A stretch of DNA of 64,000 nucleotides from Anaerolineae bacterium (GTDB taxonomy: Bacteria; Chloroflexota; Anaerolineae; CG2-30-64-16): the NCBI GenBank assembly GCA_034432655.1, contig DAOUBP010000162.1, positions 18,827-82,826 of the forward strand, written 5' to 3'. Below are positions 2,448 to 46,604 of this stretch, one piece after another. The notes under the pieces were generated by a model. The model was not told the DNA's origin and searched no databases. It was given only the letters and a program-made list of their open reading frames with translations. Position numbers and translations under genes: made by a program. Each line of letters starts with the position of its first letter. Positions within the stretch are counted from its first letter, which is position 1.

Positions 2448-3215
2448 TCATGCCAGGCCCAACGCCTTCGCCACCTCATCCGGCTTCCAGTCCACGATGA
2501 TCTGCCCCTTGATCTCAAAAGTGGGCGTGGTCTCATAACCCCGCGCCCAGCCGCGTACTTTGGCGGCTGCCGCCCGATCTTTGGAGATGTCCACTTCGAC
2601 GTAGGGGATGTTGCGCATCTGCAGCCAGGCGCGCGCCTGCCGGCAATCACCGCACCAGGGTGTGCAATAGAGGATGACATCGGCCGCGGAGCGCTCTGCA
2701 GGCGCGGCCGCAGCCGCAACGTGCTCGGCCTCTGCCAGTGCTGCCGCAGCTTCCGGCTCCAGCCCGGCCAGGACTTGGAAGAGCTCGTCGTTGTTGGGCT
2801 GATCGCTGATGTCGTGCACATCCACATAGCGGACGATCCCCTGCTTGTCTACGACGAAGATTGCGCGCTCGGTGAAACCCTCTCGTCGCAACACGCCATA
2901 GAGCTGGGCGACCTGGCCGTGGGGGAAGAAGTCAGAAAGCAGAGGATAAGTGATGCCGCCCAGGCTCTCCGCCCATGCCTTCAGACACGCCGTGCTGTCC
3001 ACGCTGAGGCCCAGAACCTGGGCCTTGATCCCTTCGAACCGGGCCAGAGCAGCCTGATACGAAGGGATCTGACTCGTTCAAACGGGGGTCCAGGCCAACG
3101 GGAAGAAAGCCAGCACGACGTTCGCCTTGCCGCGGTAGTCGCTCAAGGAGATTGTGCGGCCGTCGTGACTCTTCAGGGTAAAGTCTGGGGCAATGTCACC
3201 GACTTTTACCGGCAT
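2448..3215 (-). CDS. Selenocysteine-containing peroxiredoxin (AhpC/TSA) fused to a C-terminal glutaredoxin/NrdH-like domain
   Basis: Manual translation from ATG 3215 (RBS GGAGG): [19 protein letters not shown]...[20 protein letters not shown]... stays in frame with the 2448..3002 ORF; TGA is codon 46 at the peroxidatic Cys position; C-terminal YCTPWCGDC. Confidence 0.9.
3027..3069 (-). promoter_or_regulatory. Putative bacterial SECIS hairpin
   Basis: Perfect 10-bp stem GATCCCTTCG/CGAAGGGATC starting 8 nt 3' of the in-frame TGA (3078-3080). Confidence 0.65.
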
Positions 3216-3861
3216 TGTTTACCTCCGAAAAATGGACCAATTTGTGAGCCAACCAATCCCCGATCCCCGAGAGATCCTCGGTTGGCAAGTAATGGCCGGC
3301 GTTGGCATCGAACAGAATCCGGGCCCGGCCGGGGAATTCCTCATCCCCCTCCCAAAGCTGTACCGCGAGCGCCAGGCGAGGTAACGCCTGAAAACGGAAG
3401 AACGCATCTGGGGGCGCCAGGCCGCCGGCCGGCCCGGCGGTCAACACCGTGCCGCCGAGCGCGAGCGCGGCCTGGCGAAAGCCGGCCACGTCGTTCTCGA
3501 ACCGCTGTGCCAACAATGCCTCGGCATGGTTGGCGAACGCCTGGGCATAGAACATGCCGTCAGGCAGCTGCCGGAAGGCCAGCCAGCGGTCGGCCGGGGG
3601 TGTGCCGTCCGCCTTCAGCAGATAGTGCATCAGCACAATGGCAATGGTAACATGCGCTGGCTTCCCTGTGTCTTGCACCCACGCCTCGCCGGCCGGATGG
3701 GTGAGCAAGTGCAGCCGGCCGAAATAGGGAACCAGCACTCCCTCCGCTGTTAACGTGCAACCGGCCAGCGCAGCGCAACGCGCCGGATCGGCTGCGGCCC
3801 AATCGTCGCAAGCGCGGTCGTAAGCGAGTTGGAAACGGCGGTTAGAGTCGAGTTGGGGCAT
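3196..3861 (-). CDS. DUF3786-like protein
   Basis: [56 protein letters not shown] pattern; start could also be 3879. Confidence 0.75.
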
Positions 3862-3875
3862 GGGTATCGGCGTTC

Positions 3876-5087
3876 TCACAGCCTCGGGTTCGTATACTCG
3901 TTCCCGATCAACTCCCGTGCGATGATCATGCGCATAATGTTCATGCCGCCCTCGGCGCCGATGGAGTAGGAACGGACCCCGCGAATCCCCATCTCGATGG
4001 GGTACTCAGTCGTGTAGCCCATCGCGCCCAGCCAGTTAGCCACCTCGTTGAAGGTCTCAAATGCCATGATGGGCGCGCGCAGCTTGGCCATTGCACCATA
4101 CAAAGCGACGTCACGATGCTTGAATGTGCCCTTGCTGTACATCTCGTCCGCCATCCACGCGGCCTTATAAGTCAACAACCGTGCCGCCTCGATATCGGTA
4201 AAACGCTCGGCGGCCGGGAAGTTGATCCCCTGAAACGCAGCCAGTGGCTTACCGAACGCCTTGCGCTGGCGGATATACTCCACCCCCATCTGCAAGGCGG
4301 TCTCCGCGGCGCCGCAGCAGGTCGCGCCGATCAACGCGCGTGCATAAGTGTAGCCTTCCATCGCGTAGTAGAAACCGCGTCCGACCTCGCCGATCCGGTA
4401 GTGATCGGATAACGGCAGGTTCTCCATGTTGAACCCACCGGTGGAGATGCCGGTGCGGCCCCAGTTATGGATCAGCGTGGTGGTAATGTGCGGGTTATCT
4501 TTGATGGGCACGGCGAAGAAGGTGAAGCCCTTGTGGCCGGCCTCAGGGTCGGTGCGTACCAGCGTCATATACGCGCCGCCCATACGCAGCGATTCCTTGA
4601 TGCCGCTGATATACAGCTTCTCGCCGTTGAGCACCCAGTTGCCGTCCGCAGTGCGTTCGGCCCGGGAGCGCGTTGCGCCCTCGATATCGGAACCGCCGCT
4701 CGGCTCGGTGGACGCAATGCCCAGGAACGCTTTGCCGGCTGTCACTGCAGGCAAGATCTCTTCTTTGAGTGCCTCGCTGGCGTAGCGCTCAAAGACAAAG
4801 CCCCAACTGGCCTGCACCAGGTACATCACCGGGATCGCCAGGCTGATGTCGGCCCGGCCCAATTCCTCGGCCGCAATAGTAGCCATGGTCATGTTCATGC
4901 CCTGGCCGCCGTATTTCTCGGACACCGTCGGCGCCCACAGTCCCATGTCGGCCATCCCCTTGATGATCTCCTCAGGGATGTGATGGCCGCTGTCAATCTC
5001 GCGCACGCGCGGCGCGATCTTCTTTTGCGCAAAGTCGCGCACGGCCTTGCGCCACATCTGTTGCTCTTCGGTCCAACCGAAATCCAT
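3876..5087 (-). CDS. Acyl-CoA dehydrogenase family protein
   Basis: MDFGWTEEQQ, YGGQG, TEPSGGSD, LNGEKLYIS, RKAFGKPL, C-terminal AEGGMNIMRMIIAR. Confidence 0.92.
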   Translation of the reverse strand: MDFGWTEEQQMWRKAVRDFAQKKIAPRVREIDSGHHIPEEIIKGMADMGLWAPTVSEKYGGQGMNMTMATIAAEELGRADISLAIPVMYLVQASWGFVFERYASEALKEEILPAVTAGKAFLGIASTEPSGGSDIEGATRSRAERTADGNWVLNGEKLYISGIKESLRMGGAYMTLVRTDPEAGHKGFTFFAVPIKDNPHITTTLIHNWGRTGISTGGFNMENLPLSDHYRIGEVGRGFYYAMEGYTYARALIGATCCGAAETALQMGVEYIRQRKAFGKPLAAFQGINFPAAERFTDIEAARLLTYKAAWMADEMYSKGTFKHRDVALYGAMAKLRAPIMAFETFNEVANWLGAMGYTTEYPIEMGIRGVRSYSIGAEGGMNIMRMIIARELIGNEYTNPRL

Positions 5088-5844: not shown

Positions 5845-6501
5845 ATGGAACCTACACAAGCCACACCTGTATCCCTGCCGCGCCTGAACGAGCCGGCACC
5901 CGCATTCGAGGCCGTCACCACACACGGCGTTATCCGCCTGGCGGACTACGAAGGCTCATGGTTGATCCTGTTCTCGCACCCGGCCGATTTCACACCGGTC
6001 TGCACCACCGAATTCATCGCTTTTGCCGAGATCTATCCCGAGTTGCAAAAGCGCGGGGTAGAGCTCCTCGGCCTGAGCATTGACAGCGTATACTCGCATA
6101 TCGCCTGGCTGCGCAACATCGAGGAAAAGATGGGGGTTAAGATCCCGTTCCCGATCATTGCAGACCTGGACAAAAAGGTCGCAACCCTCTACGGCATGAT
6201 CCAGCCAGGGGAGAGCAACACCGAGACTTCGCGCTGTGTCTTCATCATTGATCCCAAGGGCATCCTGCGCGCGATGATCTACTATCCGCTGAGCCTCGGC
6301 CGCAACATGCAGGAGATCCTGCGGGTCATTGACGGCCTGCAAACCGCCGACAAATATCAGGTGGCTATTCCTGCCAACTGGCATCCCGGTGACAAGGTGA
6401 TCGTCCCGCCGCCGAAGACGATGGAGATGGCCGAGGAACGCCTGGGGGCCGGTTACGAGTGTGTGGACTGGTACCTCTGCCGGAAGACGTTGGAAGGTTG
6501 A
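5845..6501 (+). CDS. Peroxiredoxin (Prx6/1-Cys-type family)
   Basis: FSHPADFTPVCTTEF, GLSIDS, FPIIAD, GRNMQEILR, PANWHPGD, C-terminal CVDWYLC. Confidence 0.95.
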   Translation: MEPTQATPVSLPRLNEPAPAFEAVTTHGVIRLADYEGSWLILFSHPADFTPVCTTEFIAFAEIYPELQKRGVELLGLSIDSVYSHIAWLRNIEEKMGVKIPFPIIADLDKKVATLYGMIQPGESNTETSRCVFIIDPKGILRAMIYYPLSLGRNMQEILRVIDGLQTADKYQVAIPANWHPGDKVIVPPPKTMEMAEERLGAGYECVDWYLCRKTLEG

Positions 6502-9972: not shown

Positions 9973-10884
9973 CTAACACTCTTCACACTTTAGCAGGTAC
10001 TCATACGCGTTCAGCGCGGCTTTGGCGCCCTCACCGATGGCGATGACCACCTGCTCGGCCGGCAGATGCGTCACATCGCCGGCCGCGAACAGGCCAGGGA
10101 CGGTGGTCTCGCCGCCGCAGTTCACCACCACGCGGCCCTGTTCGTCCAGGTCGGCCAGCCCTCGTACCAGCTCGCTGTGAGGCCGCAAGCCCAACTCGAC
10201 GAAGATCACGTCCACATCCAGGACGCGTTGGGTCCCATCCGGCGCGCGCACCACCAGCTGCCGCGCGAAGGTGTCCCCTTCCACAGCTACCGGTTCCCAA
10301 TTTTCCAACAACTCCACATGCACCGCCGTCCGGACACGCCGGCCTAACGGTGTATCCAGATCACCGTGCGTCGGAGCTACCAGGTAAAGCCGGTCCACGA
10401 TCTGCATCAGTTCGCCCGCCCCGCGCAGGGCCATGGGGCCAGAACCTACCAGCGCCACCCGCTTGTCAATGTACAGCGGCGCGTAACTGACGGTGGAATA
10501 CGCCACCCCGCGCAGGAAATACCGATCGGCGCCGGGCACATTAAGACGAACGGCATCGGCGCCTGTGGCCAGGATGACGGTACGGCTCTCCAGCTGTTTG
10601 CCACTGGCAGTGGTGACCACAAAACCTTTGGCGGTCTTCTCTAGCCTGGTCACCTTCTCCAACATGCGGGTGAAATCCAGATACTCGATCTCGTTGCGAA
10701 AACGGCGCACCAGGTCGGCTCCGTTGACCACATTGTGCGTGTCCACTCCCTCGACGAGTAGGTGGGCATTGGCCTTGCCGCCCAGGTCAGGGCTGATCAG
10801 CATGCAATTCAGCCGTTTGCGGATGGCATACACGGCTGCAGTCAACCCTGCCGGTCCACCGCCGATGATGATAAGGTCGTACAT
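9973..10884 (-). CDS. Thioredoxin-reductase-like flavoprotein lacking the internal CxxC, with C-terminal CEEC
   Basis: IIGGGPAG and GLFAAGD FAD motifs; RGVAYSTVSY where TrxB has RGVSYCATCD; ends ...LLKCEEC. Confidence 0.85.
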   Translation of the reverse strand: MYDLIIIGGGPAGLTAAVYAIRKRLNCMLISPDLGGKANAHLLVEGVDTHNVVNGADLVRRFRNEIEYLDFTRMLEKVTRLEKTAKGFVVTTASGKQLESRTVILATGADAVRLNVPGADRYFLRGVAYSTVSYAPLYIDKRVALVGSGPMALRGAGELMQIVDRLYLVAPTHGDLDTPLGRRVRTAVHVELLENWEPVAVEGDTFARQLVVRAPDGTQRVLDVDVIFVELGLRPHSELVRGLADLDEQGRVVVNCGGETTVPGLFAAGDVTHLPAEQVVIAIGEGAKAALNAYEYLLKCEEC

Positions 10885-18683: not shown

Positions 18684-20132
18684 TTACGACTCTTCCGTCA
18701 GGAACTTATGGATGTCGGCTGCGGCGCGTTTGCCCGCCCCCATCGCGCTGATCACCGTTGCCGCGCCGGTGACCACATCGCCCCCGGCCCACACGCCCGG
18801 CTTGGCGGTGCGACCGGTCTCCGGGTCAGCCACCACCGTACCGTGGCGCGTCCGTTGCAGGTCCGGCGCCTCGTTGAAGACGACCGGGTTCGGGCTGGTG
18901 CCCAGGGCGAAGATCACGGTATCCATCGGCATCTCGAACTCCGACCCCTCGATCGGAATGGGGGAGCGGCGCCCCGAGGCATCCGGCTCGCCCAACGTCA
19001 TGCGGATGCAGCGCAACGCCCGCACATTGCCCTGTTCATCCCCCAGGATCGCCACCGGGTTGGTGAGGAAGTCGAAGATGATCCCTTCCTCCTCTGCATG
19101 GTGAAATTCTTCTTCGCGTGCCGGGACCTCGGTGCGCGAACGGCGATAGACGATGTGTACCTCATCGTCGGCCTGGCTCCCGTCGCGCGCCGCGCGCGCC
19201 ATCACCTGCAAACGCTTGGCGCTGCGTGCCGCATCCATCGCCACATTGCCGGCGCCGATCACCGCCACCCGATGGCCCACCTTCACCGGTGTGTCGTACT
19301 CCGGAAAGCGATAGCCTTTCATCAAGTTGACGCGGGTGAGGAATTCATTGGCGGACATGACACCGTTGAGGTTGATCCCAGGGATGCGCATGAAGCTGGG
19401 CAACCCTGCGCCGGTACCCAGAAACACGGCGTCGTATTCGCTAAGCAGCTCATCCAGAGTATAGGTATTGCCGATCACGTGATCTGTGCGGATCTCGATG
19501 CCCAGATAATCCACCGCCACCTTTAGCTCGGCCTGAATGATGCTCTTGGGCAGGCGGAACTCAGGGATGCCGTAGACCAGCACGCCACCGGGCAGATGCA
19601 GCGATTCAAAGATCACCACCTTATGGCCCAATTTGGCCAGGTCCACCGCGCAGGTAAGGCCGGCCGGGCCTGAACCTACCACGGCGATCTTGCGCCCTGT
19701 GGGCGGCGCAGGCTTCGGCGGGTTGGTTTGTTCGCGCAATGCGTAATCGCCCACGTACCGCTCCAGGCGGCCGATCGCCACCGGCTGGCCTTTCTTGCCC
19801 AGCACGCAATAGGCTTCGCATTGCGATTCCTGGGGGCAAACCCGACCGCAAATGGCAGGCAGGTTGTTCTTTTCCTTCATCACGTCCACGGCACCCACCA
19901 GGTCGCCCTCGCGGAGTTTGCGGATGAACTGAGGGATGAGCACCCCCACCGGACAGCCTTCGACGCAATGGGGTTTGGCGCACTGCAGACAGCGTTCGGC
20001 CTCCAGTTGCGCCAGCTCCCAGGTCAGGCCCAGCGCGACCTCCTCGAAGTTGCCGATGCGGACCTCTGGGGCCTGCTCCGGCATCTTCTGGCGCGGGATC
20101 TGCATGCGCTCGCGATTGGTCAGTTCAGCCAT
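18684..20132 (-). CDS. nfnB: NfnB (GltD-like large subunit of electron-bifurcating transhydrogenase)
   Basis: EAERCLQC...CVEGCPV, CGRVCPQESQCE, GSGPAG, YGIPEFRLPK, GAGNVAMD, AGGDVVTGAATV; coupled to nfnA. Confidence 0.9.
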   Translation of the reverse strand: MAELTNRERMQIPRQKMPEQAPEVRIGNFEEVALGLTWELAQLEAERCLQCAKPHCVEGCPVGVLIPQFIRKLREGDLVGAVDVMKEKNNLPAICGRVCPQESQCEAYCVLGKKGQPVAIGRLERYVGDYALREQTNPPKPAPPTGRKIAVVGSGPAGLTCAVDLAKLGHKVVIFESLHLPGGVLVYGIPEFRLPKSIIQAELKVAVDYLGIEIRTDHVIGNTYTLDELLSEYDAVFLGTGAGLPSFMRIPGINLNGVMSANEFLTRVNLMKGYRFPEYDTPVKVGHRVAVIGAGNVAMDAARSAKRLQVMARAARDGSQADDEVHIVYRRSRTEVPAREEEFHHAEEEGIIFDFLTNPVAILGDEQGNVRALRCIRMTLGEPDASGRRSPIPIEGSEFEMPMDTVIFALGTSPNPVVFNEAPDLQRTRHGTVVADPETGRTAKPGVWAGGDVVTGAATVISAMGAGKRAAADIHKFLTEES

Positions 20133-21034
20133 CAGCGACCTCCGACCACAGCAGATTCTTCTAGCGCCTGGACCGCGGCGTCAAGCTGGCATTGGTGCCC
20201 GGCGCTCTGCTGGCGCTGCCAACGTTCGACGGCCAACCGCTCCTCGTTGCGGTAGAACTGGATGCGTGCCAGCAGGTTGTTCCAGTCCACCAGATGGCCA
20301 TCGAACTCCGGGCCGTCTACGCAGACGAACTTTGCGCCATCGGTCATCGCTACTCGACAACCGCCACACATTCCTGTCCCGTCCACCATGATGGTGTTCA
20401 GGCTCACGATGGTGGGCACGTGAAACGGCTGTGTGGTCAAAGAGACGAATTTCATCATGATTGTCGGCCCGATGGCCCACACCTTAGCGATCTGGCCCGC
20501 GCGCACCTCCAGGAGCTCCTTCAGCGGCTCGGTGACCAGCGCTTTGCGACCGTGGGAGCCGTCGTCAGTGCACACGATCAGCTCGTCGGAGACCGCGGCC
20601 ATCTTGTCTTCCCAAAAGAGCAACTCTTTCGTGCGCGCTCCGATGATCGAGATCACGTGATTCCCGGCCGCCTTCAGGTCGCGGGCGATCGGGTACATGG
20701 GCGCAATCCCCACCCCGCCGGCCACGCACACCACCGTGCCGTAGTCCTTGATCTCGGTGGGATGGCCCAGGGGCCCGGCCACCGAGTAGAACGCATCACC
20801 CGGGACCATCCGCCCCATCTGCATGGTGGACTTACCCACTTCCTGGAAGATCAGGGTGATGGTGCCGGTCTGCGGGTTGTGGTCAGCAATGGTGAGGGGG
20901 ATGCGCTCGCCGTGTTCGTCGGCGATCACGATGACAAACTGCCCAGCTCTGGCCTTACGCGCCACGTGCGGCGCTTCGACCACCATCAGCTTCGTCACGT
21001 CGCTGAGCGTTTGTTTCTCGAGAATCTTATACAT
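20132..21034 (-). CDS. nfnA: NfnA (PyrK-like FAD/2Fe-2S small subunit)
   Basis: AGQFVIV, ERIPLTI, GPLGHP, GGVGIAP, MVDGTGMCGGCRV, FVCVDGPEFDG. Confidence 0.9.
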   Translation of the reverse strand: MYKILEKQTLSDVTKLMVVEAPHVARKARAGQFVIVIADEHGERIPLTIADHNPQTGTITLIFQEVGKSTMQMGRMVPGDAFYSVAGPLGHPTEIKDYGTVVCVAGGVGIAPMYPIARDLKAAGNHVISIIGARTKELLFWEDKMAAVSDELIVCTDDGSHGRKALVTEPLKELLEVRAGQIAKVWAIGPTIMMKFVSLTTQPFHVPTIVSLNTIMVDGTGMCGGCRVAMTDGAKFVCVDGPEFDGHLVDWNNLLARIQFYRNEERLAVERWQRQQSAGHQCQLDAAVQALEESAVVGGR

Positions 21035-21086
21035 GGGTGATTGCTCCTCGTTCGAGTTGCCGGCCCGACAACGAGACCGACCATTG

Positions 21087-21113
21087 TCCAGCACCCAGCT
21101 TCCAGCTTCCAAC
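21087..21113. repeat. Short heptamer array (TCCAGCT)n
   Basis: TCCAGCA CCCAGCT TCCAGCT TCCAACT; same class as the 12284-12330 array. Confidence 0.55.
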
Positions 21114-25148: not shown

Positions 25149-27428
25149 TTAGAAAATCGGATCCATCATCAACGCCGGATGGCCGACCGCTTCCAGATGG
25201 GCCAACAGCCCGTCCACATCGGTGCAGATCGTCTCATCGGCGATCTTGCTGATCAGGTCGGGATCGCCTTCCCGCTCGGCCACCTTCTGGAGTTCCTCGG
25301 CCATGGTCTGCTTCAGGATGCTGGACATCCAGACGACGCGCTTGAAGCCGCCGTCGGCCGAGATGAACTTGGGGCTGGTCAGGTAATACTTGCCCACGCC
25401 CATCACGCCCGGGGTCTGCAGGCCGCCGCCGGCCATGCCGGCCAGGGTCGAGAACGTCATGCCGGCCGGGGTCATGCTGGGATCTTCGCGGCTCACCACC
25501 ATCACGCCGTTGGCTTCAGGGATCAGCATCACGATGCACTCGAAGCAACCGCAGGCCGTCATCGGGCTGGTCATGATGGAGTACATGGCCACCTCTTGCA
25601 CGGTGCCGTTCGACTTCTGTTGGGCGATCTCGTTGAGGCCGGCGTAGATGCCTTTCTCGCGGTCAATCACCATCCCTTTGCGCACCGGCTGGTTCGGCCC
25701 GGTCGGATTAATCTGGTAGGACGCGGCGCAGTCCAGGTAGTTGTATGCGCCACACAGGCCCAGCCGCTGTGGGCTGACCAGACACACATGGGTCGGCGCG
25801 AAGGACTGGCACAGCGTGCAGGTGTAGAACTCCTCCACCGCTTCATCGGTCAGGTCGGCCAGGCGGCGATTACGGTAGTCGTAGGCCTCACGCGCCTTCT
25901 GCAGCCACTCGGCATGCAGCGCCGGGTCGGTGATGAGCTTGACCTGTACCTTGTCCACAATTGCGCCGAAATCCGCCATGAAGCGAGCGTGCAGAATATC
26001 GCCGAAGTGTTTGAGGGTAAAGCCCTTGTCGGCCGCCGCCTTGCTGATCCGGATCCAGGTGATGTCGCGCTGACCGATGTGCTGGATGCCGCTGGCCCCG
26101 TTGATGAAGTAGTGGATTTGGCGTTCCAGCACCGGCTCGAAGTCCTTCTGCATCTTCCGGCCGGCCACTTCCACCAGGATGCCCAGGTCCATGGCGCCGC
26201 CCACCGGCACATCTTCGAAACCGGGGCCGATCACCTCGATCTTGCCGTCCTCCACCTGATCCATGTCCACCATGCGCAGGTACTCGAACGCGCGGCTGTA
26301 CTTACCGCCGAACTCGACGCGCATGTCGGCCTTGCGCACTACTTCGCCCTCAAACGCGGAACCGTAAGGCACCGGGATCGGTACTTCGGTCAGCTTGATC
26401 TTGACCCCGCGGGTCTCGATGCACTTCTGGACCAGCTTCTCGGCCCGCTCCAGATCGTCCTTGCCTTCGATCTCGTTGAATGGCATGGAGATGACATGCT
26501 CATAGGTGGTGACGCCGGTAGGCAAGATCTGCGGGATGCGGGTATCAGCGATGACCGGGAAGCCGTAGTTGATGGCGCCGGCCGCGGCCGCATACTTCAG
26601 ATCATCCACTTCGCCCAGCGCCAACACAAACGCGAACACGCGCGCCCGGTTGTACAAGAGGATTTCCTTGGCCTGGCCGCCTTTCAGGCCGCCGAAAGTC
26701 AGCGCAGAACGGGTGGCGAAGCCGATGGGGTAAATGGCCGAGAGGGTGTCCAGGCCGAACGGCACGATGTACGTGTCATAGCCCATCTCCACGCCCTCTT
26801 CCATCAGCTGATGGATCACCGAGCGGCCGTTCACGTTGCCGCACAGGAAGATCAGGATGTTACGCCGCTGCAGCTCGCGCACAATCTTGACCGCCACCTC
26901 GTTGCTCTTGGCGCAGCCGACGATGGCTGCGAAGCCCGGCATGCGGCCATCTACCAGCTGGATGCCCCAAGCGCGCAGCTGGACGTCATCAATCGGGCCG
27001 TTCAACCGGCCATTGCCGTCCCCTGCTTCGCCATCAGGGCTGGTGAAGCTGCCGCCCGTCATGCGCAAACCGGGCAGCCGGCCCGGTTCCTCGCCATACA
27101 CAAAGCGGATCGCCTCGATGGTCTCGGCGGCCAGCAACGTCGCAATGCCACAGTCCAACGTCTCGCCCAGATAGGGGGTCCAGCATTGGGTGGTGGGCAC
27201 GGGATGCAGCAAGTCCCTGGCGTGCTCCAAGACGGGCTTCAGTTGACCCAGCTTGCTGACTTCGCGGCCGGTCAGGCCCAGAATGGTCGGCAGGTAATAG
27301 GCAGTGTTCGGAAAAGCGACCGGGGTTTCGGGACCTTTTTCACGGAGCGCCTTTTCCAACAGCGCCTCAGCCTCGGCCACAATCAAGTTTGCGCCGCGGA
27401 TGGCACGGGTAGCGATGTAACGTGACAT
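25149..27428 (-). CDS. acsB: Acetyl-CoA synthase (bacterial-type, A-cluster)
   Basis: FPNTAYYLP, ERQIHYFIN, YTCTLCQSFAPTHVC, GLCGA, MTACGCFEC. Confidence 0.97.
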   Translation of the reverse strand: MSRYIATRAIRGANLIVAEAEALLEKALREKGPETPVAFPNTAYYLPTILGLTGREVSKLGQLKPVLEHARDLLHPVPTTQCWTPYLGETLDCGIATLLAAETIEAIRFVYGEEPGRLPGLRMTGGSFTSPDGEAGDGNGRLNGPIDDVQLRAWGIQLVDGRMPGFAAIVGCAKSNEVAVKIVRELQRRNILIFLCGNVNGRSVIHQLMEEGVEMGYDTYIVPFGLDTLSAIYPIGFATRSALTFGGLKGGQAKEILLYNRARVFAFVLALGEVDDLKYAAAAGAINYGFPVIADTRIPQILPTGVTTYEHVISMPFNEIEGKDDLERAEKLVQKCIETRGVKIKLTEVPIPVPYGSAFEGEVVRKADMRVEFGGKYSRAFEYLRMVDMDQVEDGKIEVIGPGFEDVPVGGAMDLGILVEVAGRKMQKDFEPVLERQIHYFINGASGIQHIGQRDITWIRISKAAADKGFTLKHFGDILHARFMADFGAIVDKVQVKLITDPALHAEWLQKAREAYDYRNRRLADLTDEAVEEFYTCTLCQSFAPTHVCLVSPQRLGLCGAYNYLDCAASYQINPTGPNQPVRKGMVIDREKGIYAGLNEIAQQKSNGTVQEVAMYSIMTSPMTACGCFECIVMLIPEANGVMVVSREDPSMTPAGMTFSTLAGMAGGGLQTPGVMGVGKYYLTSPKFISADGGFKRVVWMSSILKQTMAEELQKVAEREGDPDLISKIADETICTDVDGLLAHLEAVGHPALMMDPIF

Positions 27429-27535: not shown

Positions 27536-29524
27536 TTATCCGTACAACTCCGCCATCTGCTCTTCCAGCGGCTCCTCCAGGAATACCTGGATCGGCACAT
27601 CGCCGGAGGCACCGAAACGAGAAGGATCATAAGGCGGCAGCTTGAGCGCAGCGCGTTTCTTGTCAATGTGTTCCAGTGTGCGGCGGACGATCTCATCCGC
27701 TTCGGTTACAAACTCCAGCTTGCCACCGAAGCGCTCTTCCCACTCCTGGGACAGGATATGGGAAACCGTATCGGAGAACTCCACCGGATTGCGCACGCCC
27801 ATGATCACATATGCCCCGGAGCCGACACAGTAAGTCGCAATGGCCAACGCTTTCTCGCTCATCCATTCGGGTGCCAGGCCCACGGCGGGGATGTCACTGA
27901 TGTCATCGCCCAGGCCCCCTTCCGTGGCCATCTGGCTCAATACCGTGAGGATGCGGCTGTTATCCACGCAGGAACCCAGGTGCAGCACGGGCGGGATGCC
28001 GATGGCCTCGCACACCTCGCGCAGGCCAGGCCCGACCTTTTCAGGATCGAGAGCGGTCGAGCCCTTAAGATAACCGTATTTGCCCGCCGCAATCGCGCCG
28101 CAGCCGGTGCTGACCACCAGCACGTCGTTCTTCAACAGCTGCGTCACCACGTCCATATGGACCTGGTCCTGGGTCAATGCCGGGTTGTTGCAGCCCACAT
28201 CGGCGGCCACCCCGCGGATGCGGCCGGCTGCAATGGCATCGTTCAGCGGCCGGAAGGAGGCGCGGTAACTGCCGCCCTGCATGTAGGCCAGATACTCGTG
28301 GCTGAAACCGGGCACCACATCCTCGTAGATGTTCTGGGGGATGCGCGTCTCCCCGCGGTTGACATAGTTGTCGCAGGCACGGCGCACGATACTCTTGGCA
28401 ATATCCAGCGCCCGGTGTTCGTCGAACTCAATATGCGTTGCGCCGGTGATCCTGACCTTGGGGCTAGTGGTGATGATCTCGGTGTGGAAGTGCTTCGCCA
28501 CATCGGTCAACGATTGCATAATGCACTGCACATCCACCACCATTGCCTCTACCGCGCCCGTGAGGATGGCCAGCTCCTGATTGAGGAAGTTGCCGGCCGA
28601 GGGGATCCCCTGGCGCATCATCACTTCGTTGGAGGTGCAGCAGATGCCGGCCAGGTTGATGCCTTTGGCCCCTTTGCTCTTCGCATATTCCAGCAGCTCT
28701 GGATCCTGGACAGCCGCCACGATCATCTCACTGAGGGTGGGCTCATGGCCGTGGACGATGATGTTCACCTCATCATCCTTCAAGCATCCCAGGTTCACCC
28801 GGCCTACCTTTGGGCTGGGTGTGCCGAACAGGATATCGGAGATATCGGTGGCCCACATCGAGCCGCCCCAACCATCGGCCAATGCCGTGCGCACCGCGGC
28901 CAACAGGATATGGCTGGCGTCCTGGTCATCGCCCATGTGGGTGCGATGGAGGATCTCTACCACTTCGCGGTCAATGCCGCGGGGGACCACCTTCTGATCG
29001 CGCCAGATCTTCTGGCGTTTCGGCGGTGCGATCGAGATATAGCTCAGCTCCCCGCGCTGTTGGCCGAACTCGCTGATGGCCTTATTCGCAACATCCAGGG
29101 CGATCTCCTTGATCGTGCGGCCCTTGGTGGGGATGTTGTGTTTGGCAGCCACAGCGAGAAGCTTGGCCTCATCGCGGATCTCATAACCCTGTGCTTCGCC
29201 CTTGGCCACGGCCTGGAGCGTAAAAGCCAGATCGCGGCCGTGATCTGAGTGAGCCGCCGCGCCGGCCGCAATGGCACGCGCCAGGTTACGTGCGGCGATG
29301 GTCTCCAGGGTGGCGCCGCAAATGCCTACCTGTCCGTCCTTGGTGATACGGCAGGGCCCCATATAGCAGTTCTTGCAGCACACGCCCGCCTGTCCACTGC
29401 CGATAGTGCAGGGCTTATGCTCCGCCGCACGACTGAACGAGGTCGGGATGCCCATCGCGGTCGCAAAATCCAAGACATAGCACGCGGCGGGGTCAATCGT
29501 CGGAACGATCTTTTGCTTAGCCAT
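27536..29524 (-). CDS. cooS: Anaerobic Ni-CO dehydrogenase catalytic subunit (CooS/AcsA)
   Basis: CCKNCYMGPC (B cluster); C-cluster ligand motifs HGHEP, ICCTSNE, DVQC, GCNN, TGCG, GSCVD; MSEKA. Confidence 0.97.
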   Translation of the reverse strand: MAKQKIVPTIDPAACYVLDFATAMGIPTSFSRAAEHKPCTIGSGQAGVCCKNCYMGPCRITKDGQVGICGATLETIAARNLARAIAAGAAAHSDHGRDLAFTLQAVAKGEAQGYEIRDEAKLLAVAAKHNIPTKGRTIKEIALDVANKAISEFGQQRGELSYISIAPPKRQKIWRDQKVVPRGIDREVVEILHRTHMGDDQDASHILLAAVRTALADGWGGSMWATDISDILFGTPSPKVGRVNLGCLKDDEVNIIVHGHEPTLSEMIVAAVQDPELLEYAKSKGAKGINLAGICCTSNEVMMRQGIPSAGNFLNQELAILTGAVEAMVVDVQCIMQSLTDVAKHFHTEIITTSPKVRITGATHIEFDEHRALDIAKSIVRRACDNYVNRGETRIPQNIYEDVVPGFSHEYLAYMQGGSYRASFRPLNDAIAAGRIRGVAADVGCNNPALTQDQVHMDVVTQLLKNDVLVVSTGCGAIAAGKYGYLKGSTALDPEKVGPGLREVCEAIGIPPVLHLGSCVDNSRILTVLSQMATEGGLGDDISDIPAVGLAPEWMSEKALAIATYCVGSGAYVIMGVRNPVEFSDTVSHILSQEWEERFGGKLEFVTEADEIVRRTLEHIDKKRAALKLPPYDPSRFGASGDVPIQVFLEEPLEEQMAELYG

Positions 29525-30448: not shown

Positions 30449-31027
30449 TCATAACAGCTGATCCGCCAGCACGATGGCCTGCGCCACCTCGGCCAGCTTA
30501 CGATTGGTATCCTGGCTCTGACGTTGAAGCCGACGGAACGCTTCCTCTTCGGTCAGGTTGAGACGGCGCATCAAGATGCCTTTGGCCCGCTCGATCACCT
30601 TGCGCGCCTCCAATGCCTCGCGCAGGTCGGCCACCTCTTGCCGCAGAGCTTGAAATTCACGAAAACGCGCCAGGGCCAGGGTGATAGCCGGCAACAGATC
30701 CTCCTCGGCCACGGGTTTCATCAGATAGGCCGAGACGTTGGCGCGGGCGGCCCGTTCTACCAGCTGTGATTCACTGTACGCGGTCAAGAGGATGATGGGG
30801 ATGGGCCGCATTTGCGTGATCTGCTCGGCCGCCTCGATCCCATCCATGACGGGCATCTTAATGTCGAGGATGGCCAGGTCCGGTTGTGTCTGTCGCGCCA
30901 GAGCCACCGCTTCTGCGCCCGTGGTCGCTTCAGCAACCACCTGGTGGCCCAACGCCGTCAACTGGGCTCGCAGGCTGAGCAGGCGGATGCTCTCGTCATC
31001 AGCGATCAAAATGCGCAGTGGCTGCAT
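30449..31027 (-). CDS. Response regulator with REC + ANTAR RNA-binding domain (PdtaR/EutV-like)
   Basis: ILIADDE, PDLAILDIKMPVMDG, YLMKP; EARKVIERAKGILM...EEEAFRRLQRQSQDTNRKL. Confidence 0.96.
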   Translation of the reverse strand: MQPLRILIADDESIRLLSLRAQLTALGHQVVAEATTGAEAVALARQTQPDLAILDIKMPVMDGIEAAEQITQMRPIPIILLTAYSESQLVERAARANVSAYLMKPVAEEDLLPAITLALARFREFQALRQEVADLREALEARKVIERAKGILMRRLNLTEEEAFRRLQRQSQDTNRKLAEVAQAIVLADQLL

Positions 31028-31030
31028 CGT

Positions 31031-32212
31031 CTACTTGTAAAAGACCAGGGTGACCTGACTGCCGCCGTTTTTCCCGGGCTCGAAGCGCAACGTGCCGGCC
31101 AGATCTTTTTCCACCAGAGTACGCACGATCTGCAGGCCCAGCCCGCGCGTGCGGCCGATGTCGAAATCGGAAGGCAGCCCCCGGCCGTTGTCGCTGACCG
31201 TCACCGTCACCTGGGGGCCCTCCTGTGCCAGGCGGATTTCCAGCCGGCCGTGCTGTCCCACAAAACTGAAGGCGTGCTCCAATGCGTTGGAGATCAGCTC
31301 GTTCATCACCAGGGCCAGGGCCGTAGCCTGCTTGGATGGCAGGTAGATCGGCGGCCCCTCAATGATGGCTTCCACGCGTTGGTCCGGCCGCACCAGGTGG
31401 CGCAGCGAGATGTCGCATACCTGGCGAGCCAGCTCGGTGATATCGGTCAGCCGGATGTTCTCTGCCGAAAGGAGTTGATGCACTGCTCCGATGCTTTTGA
31501 TGCGCGTAATACTGTCGCGTAGGCTCTTGCGCGCAGCAGGGCTGGGGCTGGCCGACATCTCCAGGCTCAAGAGGTCTGCCACGGTCTGCAAGTTGTTCTT
31601 AATGCGATGGTGCATTTCCTGGAGCAATGTGGTCAGCGCCTCAGCCTGACGCGCCTCCTCACGTAGCCGCATGTTCTCCAGCGCAATGCCCATCTGCGCA
31701 GCTACGGAGCGCAACAGTGCCATGTCGCCCTCACTGAACGGCGCGCCCTGGCGATTGGCGACGTGCAGCACCCCCAGGGCGCGCTCTTTTGCCAACAACG
31801 GCACTGCGGCACATGCATAGCCCCGGTAACGACGGCAGCCGTGCTGGAGCACTTCGGCCGCCTGCTCTGCGCCCAATGCGGTAAAAGGATCGCCCGCGAC
31901 GGCAACCAGGTCGCAGGCGCAGAACTCGGCCGCTTCCGACGCACTGCCTGGGGCCCCAGGCAGCGGCTCCCCTTCAGCTGCAGCCAGGACCAGGCGGCCG
32001 GCGGCCGCATCCCATAAGTAAATGCGGCCGCTTGCCAGTTTCAAAACCGGCAACACCTGCTTCAGCGCCTGCGAGAGGGCCTCCTGCTCGGTCAGTGCCT
32101 GGTTAATCGCTGCGGCGACCGCGTAGAGGGCCGCCAGCTCACGCGTCCGTCGCTGATCTTCAGCCGACGTATTGATCTGCTGCGCGTTGACCTCTGAGAC
32201 TCCGATCCCCAT
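31031..32212 (-). CDS. GAF-domain sensor histidine kinase, HisKA_2 type (PdtaS/EutW-like)
   Basis: GAF segment (AVPLLAKERALGVLHVA), QEMHHRIKNNLQ, ELISNALEHAF, VSDNGRGLP, GLGLQIV. Confidence 0.94.
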   Translation of the reverse strand: MGIGVSEVNAQQINTSAEDQRRTRELAALYAVAAAINQALTEQEALSQALKQVLPVLKLASGRIYLWDAAAGRLVLAAAEGEPLPGAPGSASEAAEFCACDLVAVAGDPFTALGAEQAAEVLQHGCRRYRGYACAAVPLLAKERALGVLHVANRQGAPFSEGDMALLRSVAAQMGIALENMRLREEARQAEALTTLLQEMHHRIKNNLQTVADLLSLEMSASPSPAARKSLRDSITRIKSIGAVHQLLSAENIRLTDITELARQVCDISLRHLVRPDQRVEAIIEGPPIYLPSKQATALALVMNELISNALEHAFSFVGQHGRLEIRLAQEGPQVTVTVSDNGRGLPSDFDIGRTRGLGLQIVRTLVEKDLAGTLRFEPGKNGGSQVTLVFYK

Positions 32213-32430: not shown

Positions 32431-33978
32431 TCACTTGGATGATTTTCTACGCTGCGTTTGCAGCAATGCTGCCGCTTCAAACCCGAGCGTAACCAACCGC
32501 TGCATGAAAGGCACCTCCTCCGGCGGTCGGTCGCGCAGCTGAGCAGCTGCCAGCCGGGCCAGGGCGGCTGCCTTGGGGTCACGAGCCACTGCCAGCCAGA
32601 GCGCCATCCGTTCCAGGCGGCTCTGATAGGCAGTGGCCATTTCGGGCCCAAACCGCTGTCTCAGAAATTGCGTCATGACGGCCGCACGGTCGTGGCCTTG
32701 TCCCACAAAAGGCACGGCTTCTTCGGCCAGCGCAGCCCACCAGCTCCAAAAGGCAGGGTGGTTCACCAAAGCTGCGGTGGCATCAGGCTCCGCCTCGGCT
32801 TGCCGTCCGGGAACCTCGGCGGCCGTTTCCGGTGCTGATGCCGTCTGACCCGAAACGGCCAGCCACAACGGCAGGTTCAACAGACGATAAGGCACCGGTG
32901 TGGGCGTCGCACTGGCCCAGTTCAACGCCAGCGCCTCCTGCAGAAACTGCTGCCCAATCGCCAGGGGCGCTTCCAACAAGAGCAGCCCATCATGCTGCTG
33001 ATCAAAGGCCACCTGATGCAATGTGCCGACCGGCTGCTCACCGGGCAGGTCTGTTACCGCCATGCTCAGGGAACCTGACGCCGCACTGACGCCTTTGCCT
33101 TCCTCCAGCAGGAGGCTGATCAACAGGGCGCGTTCTTCGGCCGGTACACGGCCGACAAACCAAAGAAGCTGCGCACCGGTGCCATCTACCGGCGAGACCA
33201 AAGCCCGCCATTCACGGCCAGGCACGAACCAGGGCCGATCCATGGTGTCGGCCTCGTCGGCGAGGCTTACACCGCTCAGAGCCAGCTTACGGACCCCGCG
33301 CTCGGCCAGTGACGCCAGGGAAGGCGGCAACGTCTTCGCCAGGGCGGCCAGCGCACGCGCCGCCGCAGGGGAGCGGATGCGCCCCAGATGCTCCAAAGCA
33401 CTGCGGGCCAGCCTGGCATCGGAACCCTGGGCCAACATCCGCAACAAAGTGATCAAAGCCCCGGTGACCGGCGCAGCAGGCACGGCTTGCAGCAGCAAAT
33501 GCGGCACATCCGGCGGCTGCTCTTCCAGCTGTGCCAGGTATTCGAGGATGCTCAGCGGCTCTTGCGCCATGGTCCTGGCCAACTCATCCAACGAGCGCAG
33601 GGCAGTCGCCTCCGGGCTCTCCAGGCTGTCCAACAACGCCTCGTCGGGAGGTTCGTTGAAGTAACGGTCCAGGATGATCAGGGCGGTCAGGCGGGCCTGC
33701 GGGCTGCGTTCACGCGCGCGGGCGGCCGCCCGCAGCGCCGCAAGCACCTGGGCGCGCGGCAGCCGAAGCGCCACCTGTCCCAAACCGCCGCGCAGCTGCG
33801 GATCGTCGGTGTCCAGCGCGGCGATCAGCGCGGCCAGCGCGACGTTGCCATGCTGCGCGATAGCGTTTGCGCGCTCGGCCAGCTGGCCAGGGTCTGTGAT
33901 GGCAGCCAGCTCCGCGATCGCAGCGTCCACAGCACGTCGCTCGGCCAGGCCGGTCAAAATCTTCGCTTCCGAACTCAT
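32431..33978 (-). CDS. Hypothetical helical protein (HEAT-like N-terminus)
   Basis: Long Ala/Leu-rich ORF co-oriented with tatA; no family motif recognised. Confidence 0.7.
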   Translation of the reverse strand: MSSEAKILTGLAERRAVDAAIAELAAITDPGQLAERANAIAQHGNVALAALIAALDTDDPQLRGGLGQVALRLPRAQVLAALRAAARARERSPQARLTALIILDRYFNEPPDEALLDSLESPEATALRSLDELARTMAQEPLSILEYLAQLEEQPPDVPHLLLQAVPAAPVTGALITLLRMLAQGSDARLARSALEHLGRIRSPAAARALAALAKTLPPSLASLAERGVRKLALSGVSLADEADTMDRPWFVPGREWRALVSPVDGTGAQLLWFVGRVPAEERALLISLLLEEGKGVSAASGSLSMAVTDLPGEQPVGTLHQVAFDQQHDGLLLLEAPLAIGQQFLQEALALNWASATPTPVPYRLLNLPLWLAVSGQTASAPETAAEVPGRQAEAEPDATAALVNHPAFWSWWAALAEEAVPFVGQGHDRAAVMTQFLRQRFGPEMATAYQSRLERMALWLAVARDPKAAALARLAAAQLRDRPPEEVPFMQRLVTLGFEAAALLQTQRRKSSK

Positions 33979-33987
33979 TGTAGTAAA

Positions 33988-33996
33988 ATTATAGCA
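33988..33996 (-). promoter_or_regulatory. Extended -10 element TGcTATAAT
   Basis: Exact match 9 nt upstream of ATG 33978, suggesting a near-leaderless transcript. Confidence 0.6.
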
Positions 33997-34061
33997 CACA
34001 AGCCGGCCCACAAGAAACAGGCGCCAAGCGCGCCGATCAGACAGGAGAACAAGAGCCCGTC

Positions 34062-36305: not shown

Positions 36306-36402
36306 GAAAAGTCGACGGCCAGACCGGGATGGACGGCAGGCCACTTGACAAAGAACCGTTGCTCCATTATGCTTTTCGCCAATTGAATTCAGGGAGCATG
36401 GT

Positions 36403-36915
36403 ATGGCATATCCGGTTGTTGAGTTGGATCCCGTCACCCACATCACTGCGGGCGCGCTGGGCAGGCCGGGCCACCGCACCTTTTTTATCCAGGCCGAACG
36501 CGGGCTGGATCGCGTAACGCTGCTTTGTGAAAAGGAGCAGGTGCTGGCGCTGGCCGAGGCCATTGATGAGATGCTCGAAAATCTGGAAGAGGAGTTCGGC
36601 CTGGCACGTCACGAGGGGCTCAAGGTGGACGACGTCGCCATGAGCATCAAAGAGCCGGTGGACCCGCTGTTCCGCGTGGGGGCGATGGGCCTGGGCTATG
36701 ACGCGAACCGCGATCGCATCCTGCTGGTAGCCCAGGAAGTGCTGGATGAAGAAGCCGAAGCGGATCCGCGGGAGGCCCGTTTCTACGCCACCCGCGCTCA
36801 GATGCAGGCGCTCAGCATTTACGCCCGCGGCGTGGTGGAAAAGGGGCGCACCCCCGATCAGGTGGTGCTCCAGGCCGAGGCGTATGTGCGTCGGAATGGA
36901 CATGGAGACGGATAG
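36403..36915 (+). CDS. DUF3090-like protein
   Basis: HITAGALGRPGHRTFFIQA, EKEQV, EPVDPLFRVG, LGYD, VEKGR, RRNGH. Confidence 0.8.
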   Translation: MAYPVVELDPVTHITAGALGRPGHRTFFIQAERGLDRVTLLCEKEQVLALAEAIDEMLENLEEEFGLARHEGLKVDDVAMSIKEPVDPLFRVGAMGLGYDANRDRILLVAQEVLDEEAEADPREARFYATRAQMQALSIYARGVVEKGRTPDQVVLQAEAYVRRNGHGDG

Positions 36916-36941
36916 ACACCGGACAGGCCGACAAAGCATGG

Positions 36942-37142: not shown

Positions 37143-39284
<2,142 letters not shown>

Positions 39285-46183: not shown

Positions 46184-46223
46184 CTCGCCTGTCGGATGAG
46201 GTGGAGCATCAGGGAGGTGAATC

Positions 46224-46586
46224 ATGCGGCCCAAGATCGAAGAGACCTGGTTCGGCAGCATCACGGTTGAAGGAAGGCGTTACGAGCACGACATCATCAT
46301 TCGCCTTAGCGGAAAGGTGCGCAAGCGCAACAAGCAACTTTCCAAAGCCGTCTACGGCACCTCGCATACTCTCAGCCTGGCCGAGATCAAAGACTTGCAC
46401 CGCAAGAAAGCGGAACGGATCATCATCGGCACAGGGCAGGAGGGCCAGGTGCATCTGTCGCCCGAGGCTGCCGAATTCCTGAAAGAGAAAGGTTGCCAGG
46501 TTGACCTCTGGCCGACCCCCGAAGCCATCAAACACTGGAACAAAGCAGAGGGCAAGGTGCTGGGCCTGTTCCACGTCACCTGCTGA
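46224..46586 (+). CDS. Mth938-like (DUF498) protein
   Basis: FGSITVEG, IIIGTGQEG, TPEAIKHWN, GLFHVTC. Confidence 0.85.
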   Translation: MRPKIEETWFGSITVEGRRYEHDIIIRLSGKVRKRNKQLSKAVYGTSHTLSLAEIKDLHRKKAERIIIGTGQEGQVHLSPEAAEFLKEKGCQVDLWPTPEAIKHWNKAEGKVLGLFHVTC

Positions 46587-46604
46587 GGCTAAAGGAGCAC
46601 AAGG

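Follow-up and report, generated by a model that had tools for sequence, protein, structure and literature searches.

A 64,000-nt stretch of contig DAOUBP010000162.1 from an Anaerolineae bacterium (Chloroflexota; GenBank assembly GCA_034432655.1), referred to below as the window, carries on its minus strand a gene that is interrupted by an in-frame TGA codon. Our analysis indicates, with a probability of about 0.82, that this gene encodes a 255-residue selenoprotein in which a selenocysteine (Sec) peroxiredoxin (Prx) of the AhpE type is linked to a mycoredoxin-like glutaredoxin (Grx) domain, that the TGA is recoded through a selenocysteine insertion sequence (SECIS), and that the enzyme follows a cycle like that of AhpE and mycoredoxin-1 (Mrx1) of Mycobacterium tuberculosis. 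The original prediction, made from the letters of the window alone, had proposed a Sec-Prx fused to a Grx-like domain, and this proposal is supported here by pairs of Sec and Cys homologues, by the presence of the same TGA in 76 of 80 related loci, by conserved coding sequence on both sides of that codon, by a covarying hairpin behind it, and by the use of TGA as a normal stop codon elsewhere in the window.

A single reading frame with one internal TGA

In the list of open reading frames (ORFs), the gene appears only as two separate pieces, 3215..3078 (45 aa) and 3002..2448 (184 aa). Read as one frame on the minus strand, it comprises 255 codons with a single internal TGA, at codon 46 within PLAWTPV-U (Table 1). 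The ATG at 3215 with a ribosome-binding site ahead of it, the TGA at the peroxidatic position and the CGDC motif of the Grx domain, on which the original prediction was built, were all found exactly where it had placed them. When the product was translated with U replaced by Cys, the Pfam AhpC-TSA domain was detected at 3.5e-40 (137.2 bits, against a cutoff of 26) over residues 5 to 131, a span that includes the TGA, and the Pfam Glutaredoxin domain was detected at 2.8e-13 over residues 180 to 240. Moreover, an independent Logan assembly of sequencing run SRR7903765 (L081) was identical over 8,396 bases, TGA included. TGA is also the commonest stop codon in the window, terminating 26 of the 46 Pfam-supported genes as well as the Prx-Grx gene itself, and thus an alternative genetic code (4 or 25, with TGA read as Trp or Gly) is ruled out.

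Conservation of the TGA among homologues

A search of 5.8 billion proteins, from which the 120 best clusters were examined, revealed two classes of homologues, namely truncated close relatives and full-length, more distant ones. The nearest relatives (65 to 89% identity) are all 185 to 205 aa long and start just past the TGA position, while the full-length proteins are less close (52 to 63% identity). Truncated proteins make up 76 of the 120 clusters; in the others, the residue aligned with codon 46 is Cys (29 clusters), Trp (12), Gly (2) or Arg (1). At the DNA level, a scan of one genome per species yielded 80 related loci, and TGA occupies the position of codon 46 in 76 of these, from several phyla. 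The Cys forms have TGT or TGC at the same codon, so that a comparison of homologues for Cys or U at codon 46, recommended when the gene was first noticed, returned both.

Among the 76 TGA loci, 30 encode Prx-Grx fusions and belong almost entirely to Anaerolineae or other Chloroflexota, including Leptolinea sp. HRD-7, Ornatilinea apprima and a metagenome-assembled genome named 'Anaerolinea thermophila.' The other 46 encode a stand-alone Prx of ∼153 aa and come from Pyrinomonadaceae and other Acidobacteriota, Bacillaceae, Sulfobacillus, Heliobacteriaceae, Gemmatimonadota, Eremiobacterota and one deltaproteobacterium. In alignments, the TGA of codon 46 stands opposite Cys in P0012, P0049, P0051, P0055, P0073 and P0100 and opposite Cys45 of M. 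tuberculosis AhpE, providing the Sec/Cys homologue pairs that mark a selenoprotein family. Residues encoded 5' of the TGA (A9, L14, P39, T43, P44 and others) vary little or not at all among full-length proteins; the UGA and the coding sequence flanking it are thus conserved together. One full-length homologue (P0048) has Arg at the peroxidatic position, which may reflect a CGA substitution, an inactive paralogue or a calling artefact.

The original prediction had further warned that such a gene would readily be misannotated, and the public records bear this out. Orthologues are deposited as proteins of 185 to 205 aa named 'glutaredoxin,' 'arsenate reductase-like glutaredoxin family protein' or 'redoxin domain-containing protein' (e.g., UCC86836.1, 188 aa), with annotated starts that vary from one truncated protein to another, or else with Trp or Gly at the Sec site. 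Public metagenome calls have Trp there in P0006, P0010, P0020, P0034, P0035 and others, and Gly in P0007 and P0018; in one Trp protein that was checked in DNA (L085:298-300), the codon is TGA. Trp and Gly at this site are gene-caller artefacts of codes 4 and 25. Short contigs that carry selenoprotein genes appear to push gene callers into one of these two codes.

A selected hairpin behind the TGA

Starting 11 nt past the U of the UGA, a perfect 10-bp lower stem (GATCCCTTCG/CGAAGGGATC) is formed, as originally predicted, with two short upper stems and a GCUCU apical loop above it. Its minimum free energy (MFE) is -31.1 kcal/mol over 70 nt (z = -3.2 against dinucleotide shuffles). In resamples of synonymous codons that used the window's own codon usage, the hairpin was compared at -26.4 kcal/mol with -13.8±4.0, and only 0.8% of the resamples were equally stable.

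The signal is a property of the Sec genes as a group. The mean MFE of 48-nt segments reaches its global minimum at +9 from the TGA in 31 Sec fusions (-19.5 versus -11.4±2.3, or 3.6 standard deviations below the gene mean), and the global minimum falls at the same position in the 46 stand-alone Sec genes (-16.7 versus -10.9±2.1, 2.7 standard deviations), while the Cys forms show no dip after codon 46. Pairs were counted on an ungapped codon alignment that was fitted to no structure: 83.2% of the cells pair, compared with 24 to 46% when the partners are slid, compensatory cells number 31 against 11.8±2.8 in shuffles (none of the 500 shuffles reached 31), and double-sided changes occur in 8 of the 15 hairpin pairs. 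The hairpin is absent from six Cys-form fusions, which encode the same QIPSY... peptide as the Sec fusions over this stretch; their mean energy is -7.8 kcal/mol versus -19.3 kcal/mol in 32 Sec fusions (Mann-Whitney P = 1.5e-4).

Across these 32 Sec fusions, the stem begins at nt 12 in 23 cases and the apical loop at nt 30 to 32 in 30, and a G lies within the first two bases of the loop in 24, with the hairpin of the window being among the most stable of the family. A conserved stem-loop with a small apical loop therefore follows the UGA at ∼11 nt, and in its spacing, its small loop and the G near the start of the loop this geometry presumably agrees with the bacterial SECIS consensus.

An AhpE-type peroxiredoxin joined to a mycoredoxin-like glutaredoxin

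Judged by its nearest sequences and by a predicted structure, the Prx domain is of the AhpE type and not of the Prx5 type. Among PDB sequences, it is closest to the AhpE entries from M. tuberculosis (E about 1e-30), and an AlphaFold model of P0012, the nearest Cys homologue (60% identical; mean predicted local distance difference test [pLDDT] score, 91.9; predicted template modeling [TM] score, 0.81), superposes on AhpE as a top structural match, with a TM score of 0.88 to 0.91 and a root mean square deviation (RMSD) of 1.6 Å. The domain score for PF00578, the PxxxTxxC/U motif (P39, T43 and U46) and the catalytic Arg all mark a peroxiredoxin; T43 and R117 are invariant, and R117 aligns with R116 of AhpE. 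A core of ∼150 residues and the lack of a conserved resolving Cys likewise agree with the AhpE subfamily, an assignment that rests on the nearest PDB sequence and structure. Cys77 of the Prx domain is found in 107 of 117 fusions; it is unlikely to be an obligatory resolving residue, because Ser or Thr takes its place in most of the stand-alone Sec forms examined.

The linker that follows is gapped and without conservation in the alignment, and the matching blocks of the P0012 model have lower pLDDT scores (∼78 to 81). Beyond it, the Grx domain has M. tuberculosis mycoredoxin-1 (2LQO) as its best PDB match (E 2.3e-8). Against NCBIfam it scored 52.1 bits for TIGR02196 (YruB; cutoff, 88.55) and 46.8 bits for TIGR02200 (mycoredoxin; cutoff, 89.5), so that it falls below both thresholds, and with its CxxC site it resembles both families. 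C188 and C191 form this redox site, which aligns with TTSWCGYC of Mrx1. An additional invariant Cys, C184, lies four residues ahead of the site; CxxxCxxC is present in all 120 best clusters, mycoredoxin-1 has no counterpart of C184, and this residue is unexplained by the AhpE/Mrx1 model. The PrxU model (NF040737, cutoff of 270 bits) gave 69.8 bits for the protein of the window and 66 to 92 bits for the four stand-alone Sec relatives that were scored, and no NCBIfam model reaches its cutoff for the fusion or for these four relatives.

Evolution of the fusion

In a neighbour-joining tree of 129 Prx-domain sequences, the fusions formed one clade adjoining stand-alone forms that are almost all Sec proteins. 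Cys fusions were placed in at least five separate subclades nested among Sec forms, while the protein of the window fell in an all-Sec subclade of 13. This nesting suggests that Sec was ancestral in the fusion and was then repeatedly replaced by Cys. The distribution is best explained by a fusion that is spread throughout the Anaerolineae and derives from a widespread stand-alone Sec-Prx similar to AhpE.

Comparison with known peroxiredoxins and glutaredoxins

Sec-containing peroxiredoxins as such are not new, as the original prediction had correctly stated, and the study reportedly behind this family is that of Söhling et al. in 2001. Those with a (P)xxxTxxU motif have counted as a selenoprotein family since 2001 and are covered in comparative surveys (PMC1794560; 2026 review, PMC13188914). 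The protein of the window shares with this TxxU family the AhpC/TSA fold, Sec at the peroxidatic position of PxxxTxxU, the existence of Cys homologues, and an occurrence in anaerobes as well as in Acidobacteria and Bacillales. It differs from the biochemically characterized member, PrxU (NF040737, Eubacterium acidaminophilum type), which belongs to a different, Prx1/AhpC-like subfamily. None of the families in the 2026 review has a fused Grx domain, and no Prx/Grx fusion is listed among its selenoprotein families (PMC13188914). In addition, Zhang et al. (2006) (PMC1794560) inferred only Cys-to-Sec events for Prx, whereas the fusion clade looks Sec-ancestral, with repeated changes to Cys.

The nearest relatives of the two domains are M. 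tuberculosis AhpE (Rv2238c) for the Prx and mycoredoxin-1 (Rv3198A) for the Grx. AhpE is a 1-Cys peroxiredoxin with demonstrated peroxidase activity, the sulfenic acid of which is reduced by Mrx1 directly or via mycothiol (PMC4360819, citing Hugo et al. 2014). A 1-Cys-type mechanism would be common to AhpE and the Prx domain of the window, neither of which has a conserved resolving Cys. In M. tuberculosis, however, the demonstrated peroxidase and its reductant are two proteins with a peroxidatic Cys, whereas in the window a single polypeptide with a predicted peroxidatic Sec combines both. The Grx site differs as well, being C-x3-C-[GP]-D-C with the extra invariant Cys in the fusions and CGYC in Mrx1. 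The host belongs to the Chloroflexota, in which mycothiol is not known.

The hybrid Prx5-Grx of Haemophilus influenzae (PGdx, 1NM3), which the original prediction had invoked as a precedent, turned out to match in domain order alone. An N-terminal Prx followed by a C-terminal Grx and the concept of a tethered reductant are shared; the families are not, since the Prx is AhpE-type and the Grx mycoredoxin/YruB-like in the window, whereas PGdx is a Cys enzyme without Sec that combines a Prx5-type domain with a classical glutathione-dependent Grx. PGdx was absent from the 60 best PDB sequence matches of the Prx domain of the window, and the whole-chain match of the P0012 model to 1NM3 was poor (TM score, 0.47 to 0.49; RMSD, 11 Å; 21% identity). 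In a structural review of peroxiredoxins, the Prx5-Grx hybrid and a Prx-nitroreductase are the only fused forms named, and literature searches turned up no account of an AhpE that contains selenocysteine or carries a fused glutaredoxin. Thus, the fused Sec form of an AhpE-type Prx and a mycoredoxin-like Grx appears to be undescribed, although it introduces no new principle, Sec-Prx itself being known.

Proposed mechanism

The recoding step and the identities of the active-site residues are backed by sequence and comparative evidence, while the later steps are modelled on AhpE and Mrx1. UGA-46 would be recoded to Sec by the mRNA hairpin that starts 11 nt downstream and acts as a bacterial SECIS, bringing SelB·GTP·Sec-tRNA(Sec) to the ribosome. 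The expected product is an AhpE-type 1-'Cys' Prx, with its peroxidatic Sec46 presumably activated by Thr43 and Arg117, which a flexible Ala/Glu-rich linker would tie to the mycoredoxin-like Grx domain. By analogy, the Sec46 selenolate may reduce H2O2, an organic hydroperoxide or peroxynitrite and thereby become a selenenic acid, which Cys188 of the fused CxxC could attack directly and, in all likelihood, from another subunit. In a second possible route, a low-molecular-weight thiol would first generate a selenenylsulfide, to be removed afterwards by the Grx domain. Cys191 would resolve the mixed bond, and the resulting Grx disulfide would be re-reduced by the thiol or flavoprotein-reductase system of the cell.

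Weighing of the evidence and alternative explanations

Several observations weigh against the reading as a self-reducing Sec-Prx-Grx enzyme. No selA, selB, selD or tRNA-Sec gene, nor a further credible gene with an internal TGA, was seen in the 64-kb window or in ∼0.85 Mb of sequence flanking the related loci: neither the window nor 60 related loci contained a tRNA-Sec detectable by ARAGORN, Pfam searches of ∼50 ORFs of the window detected no SelA, SelB or SelD, and tblastn with E. coli SelA, SelB and SelD against all fetched loci gave a single match, to a generic GTPase. That this genome can decode Sec is thus a prediction. A scan of the window for further TGA-interrupted frames yielded off-frame artefacts only. 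As for the hairpin, the GC content of this stretch is 0.53 in Sec and 0.45 in Cys fusions, which accounts for part of the energy gap between them; there was no match to a relevant Rfam family in gathering or permissive mode; and RNAalifold predicted no hairpin on an ungapped alignment of 31 sequences, because the register of the lower stem differs by 1 nt (i+j=65 for the majority, but i+j=66 for the window), after which the alignment-free MFE profiles and explicit pair counting described above were used instead. Moreover, the predicted structure is that of the 60%-identical Cys homologue P0012 and not of the protein of the window, the Prx-domain tree carries no support values and draws on a sample biased towards relatives of a Sec query, and the catalytic cycle, the reductant and any role for C184 are inferred.

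The split of the gene into pieces of 45 and 184 aa, together with the existence of Cys homologues with TGT or TGC, would also be expected of a pseudogene or a sequencing error, in which a TGC/TGT-to-TGA nonsense change or an assembly fault had inactivated an ordinary Cys-Prx-Grx gene. This explanation is effectively refuted by the recurrence of the TGA in orthologous loci of several phyla; conserved coding on both sides, the selected hairpin and a second assembly of identical sequence also speak against it. Scarcely more probable is that translation simply stops at UGA-46, releasing a short peptide, and restarts at the internal GTG at 3002 to give a 184-residue Grx protein, with the hairpin serving as a pause or coupling signal. 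Most databases do annotate the orthologues in this way (as 'glutaredoxin' of 185 to 205 aa), yet a Prx fold in the 184-aa form would be without its first three strands and its entire active-site helix (with P39, T43 and the peroxidatic residue), the residues upstream of the TGA are invariant, the annotated starts vary as arbitrary choices of gene callers would, and the Cys forms are single full-length proteins.

A further possibility is that Sec insertion has been lost in this genome, so that UGA-46 is weakly decoded by a near-cognate tRNA (Trp or Cys) or mostly terminates and the gene is decaying or weak. Neither Sec machinery nor another selenoprotein gene was seen in the 64-kb window, and the several replacements of Sec by Cys within the family indicate that dependence on Sec has sometimes been abandoned. 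However, the window retains an intact hairpin, one of the most stable in its family (-26.4 versus a mean of -19.3), the protein belongs to an all-Sec subclade, and 64 kb is a small fraction of a genome. Sec-specific elongation factors have also been documented in Anaerolineales, where single-cell genomes encode them along with Sec-type formate dehydrogenases, and Anaerolinea thermophila UNI-1 has a Sec elongation factor without an annotated Sec dehydrogenase (Fullerton and Moyer 2016, PMC4959059). Loss of Sec decoding is thus improbable, though less so than either of the preceding explanations.

Somewhat better placed, if still unlikely, is a genuine selenoprotein with another role, for instance in redox relay or sensing or in the reduction of some other substrate (reactive sulfur or selenium species, a protein disulfide), in which the Grx domain would pass oxidizing equivalents to a target. 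The unexplained C184 of the CxxxCxxC motif, a conventional 1-Cys Prx6 already encoded ∼3 kb away in the window, and a probable operon with an acyl-CoA dehydrogenase and a DUF3786 protein all fit such a role. Against it, the catalytic Prx residues P39, T43, U46 and R117 are all conserved, the fold is that of AhpE, an enzyme with demonstrated peroxidase activity (PMC4360819), and the neighbourhoods are not conserved and hence imply no specific partner. A Sec peroxidase reduced by its own Grx domain therefore remains the preferred reading.

Genomic neighbourhood

The Prx-Grx gene is the last in an overlapping minus-strand series of acyl-CoA dehydrogenase, DUF3786 and Prx-Grx genes, with a CBS-domain gene upstream (Table 1). 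Judging from the overlaps, DUF3786 and Prx-Grx are probably cotranscribed and translationally coupled, and the acyl-CoA dehydrogenase gene probably stands first or second in this transcription unit.

Table 1. Coordinates of the Prx-Grx gene, its elements and neighbouring genes in the 64,000-nt window
Feature	Position	Strand	Remarks
Complete Sec-Prx-Grx reading frame (predicted)	2448..3215	-	255 sense codons, U = codon 46, terminal TGA 2450..2448
Shine-Dalgarno sequence GGAGG	3226..3222	-	6-nt spacer, then ATG 3215..3213; read directly from the sequence
In-frame TGA, codon 46, proposed to be read as Sec	3080..3078	-	Peroxidatic position of PxxxTxxU (P39, T43, U46)
SECIS-like hairpin	3027..3069	-	Lower stem 3069..3060 with 3036..3027; apical loop GCUCU 3050..3046
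AhpE-type Prx domain	2823..3203	-	Pfam residues 5-131; fold reaches ∼residue 150
Ala/Glu-rich linker, residues ∼152-178	2682..2762	-	Length and sequence variable
Mycoredoxin/YruB-like Grx domain, residues 180-255	2451..2678	-	
CxxxCxxC motif (C184-TPW-C188-GD-C191)	2643..2666	-	Within YCTPWCGDC; invariant columns in alignments
DUF3786 gene	3196..3879	-	Last 20 nt overlap the Prx-Grx start
Acyl-CoA dehydrogenase gene	3876..5087	-	Overlaps DUF3786 by 4 nt
Cys-type 1-Cys Prx6 (AhpC-TSA + 1-cysPrx_C)	5845-6501	+	2.6 kb from Sec-Prx-Grx, opposite strand
Wood-Ljungdahl cluster	6836-29524	-	Carbonyl and methyl branch, near-complete
TrxR-like flavoprotein	9973-10884	-	Amid Wood-Ljungdahl genes
NfnAB/GltD-like genes	18684-21112	-	Amid Wood-Ljungdahl genes
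ACS	25149-27428	-	In Wood-Ljungdahl cluster
CODH	27536-29524	-	In Wood-Ljungdahl cluster

The Wood-Ljungdahl cluster encodes MetF/MetV, FolD, AcsE, CooC, RACo, the large and small subunits of CFeSP, ACS and CODH; neither formate dehydrogenase nor formyl-tetrahydrofolate synthetase was seen in the 64-kb window. It starts 3.6 kb from the Prx-Grx gene, and CODH/ACS lies 22 to 26 kb away, so that the description of the peroxidase as standing beside an O2-sensitive CODH/ACS cluster holds loosely as regards position, while the functional link it implied has no support in gene order. None of the neighbouring genes in the window, be it DUF3786, acyl-CoA dehydrogenase or a Wood-Ljungdahl gene, recurs near the orthologue at any of the 80 related loci, and a dedicated role in guarding CODH/ACS was therefore rejected as unsupported.

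Malic enzyme and GNAT genes are also interspersed in the cluster. On the same strand, ∼1 kb upstream of CODH, an ANTAR response regulator and a GAF/HisKA_2 histidine kinase are encoded (30449-32212, minus strand), and this pair may regulate the Wood-Ljungdahl cluster via transcription antitermination. Another thiol-redox protein of the window, 713 aa long (37143-39284, plus strand), has an N-terminal thioredoxin-like DUF255 (Thioredox_DsbH) domain. Three minus-strand ORFs (32431-34011, 46209-47177 and 36367-36939, with 526, 322 and 190 aa, respectively) had no Pfam match at E ≤ 0.001. In three Bacillaceae loci, a gene for a TrxR-like flavoprotein (L041:4913-5818, L049:4967-5872 and L054:4908-5813) ends ∼180 nt upstream of the stand-alone Sec-Prx gene (at ∼6001), and the two may constitute a dedicated reductase operon.

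Implications for the Anaerolineae and other lineages

The gene occurs in dozens of Anaerolineae genomes, and its stand-alone form occurs in many genomes of Acidobacteriota and Bacillota. Its current database entries show a truncated 'glutaredoxin,' a pair of fragments, or a protein with Trp or Gly at the Sec site, and no NCBIfam model covers it. A dedicated model would mend a systematic annotation error and revise the selenoproteomes of Anaerolineae, Acidobacteriota and Bacillota. Beyond this family, miscalls under codes 4 and 25 would be a general origin of falsely 'recoded' contigs and of hidden selenoproteins.

A further-reaching idea, which we offer tentatively and consider doubtful, is that the fusion is an ancestral, self-reducing AhpE-mycoredoxin 'Rosetta-stone' selenoenzyme with a CxxxCxxC relay, and that, as the chief or even sole selenoprotein, it sustains the Sec machinery in many Anaerolineae. 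If so, the presence of SelB in A. thermophila UNI-1 without an annotated Sec enzyme would be accounted for, and the repeated Sec-to-Cys swaps would amount to a natural experiment on the contribution of Sec to Prx catalysis.

In this organism, at least two peroxidases are encoded near oxygen-sensitive Wood-Ljungdahl genes, a proximity that gene order does not turn into a functional link. Closely related two-domain enzymes with Sec and with Cys offer a clean system in which to gauge the advantage of Sec in catalysis or in resistance to overoxidation. Finally, the fusion provides independent support for an electron path between AhpE and mycoredoxin, described elsewhere in mycobacteria only, and would extend this path to the Chloroflexota.

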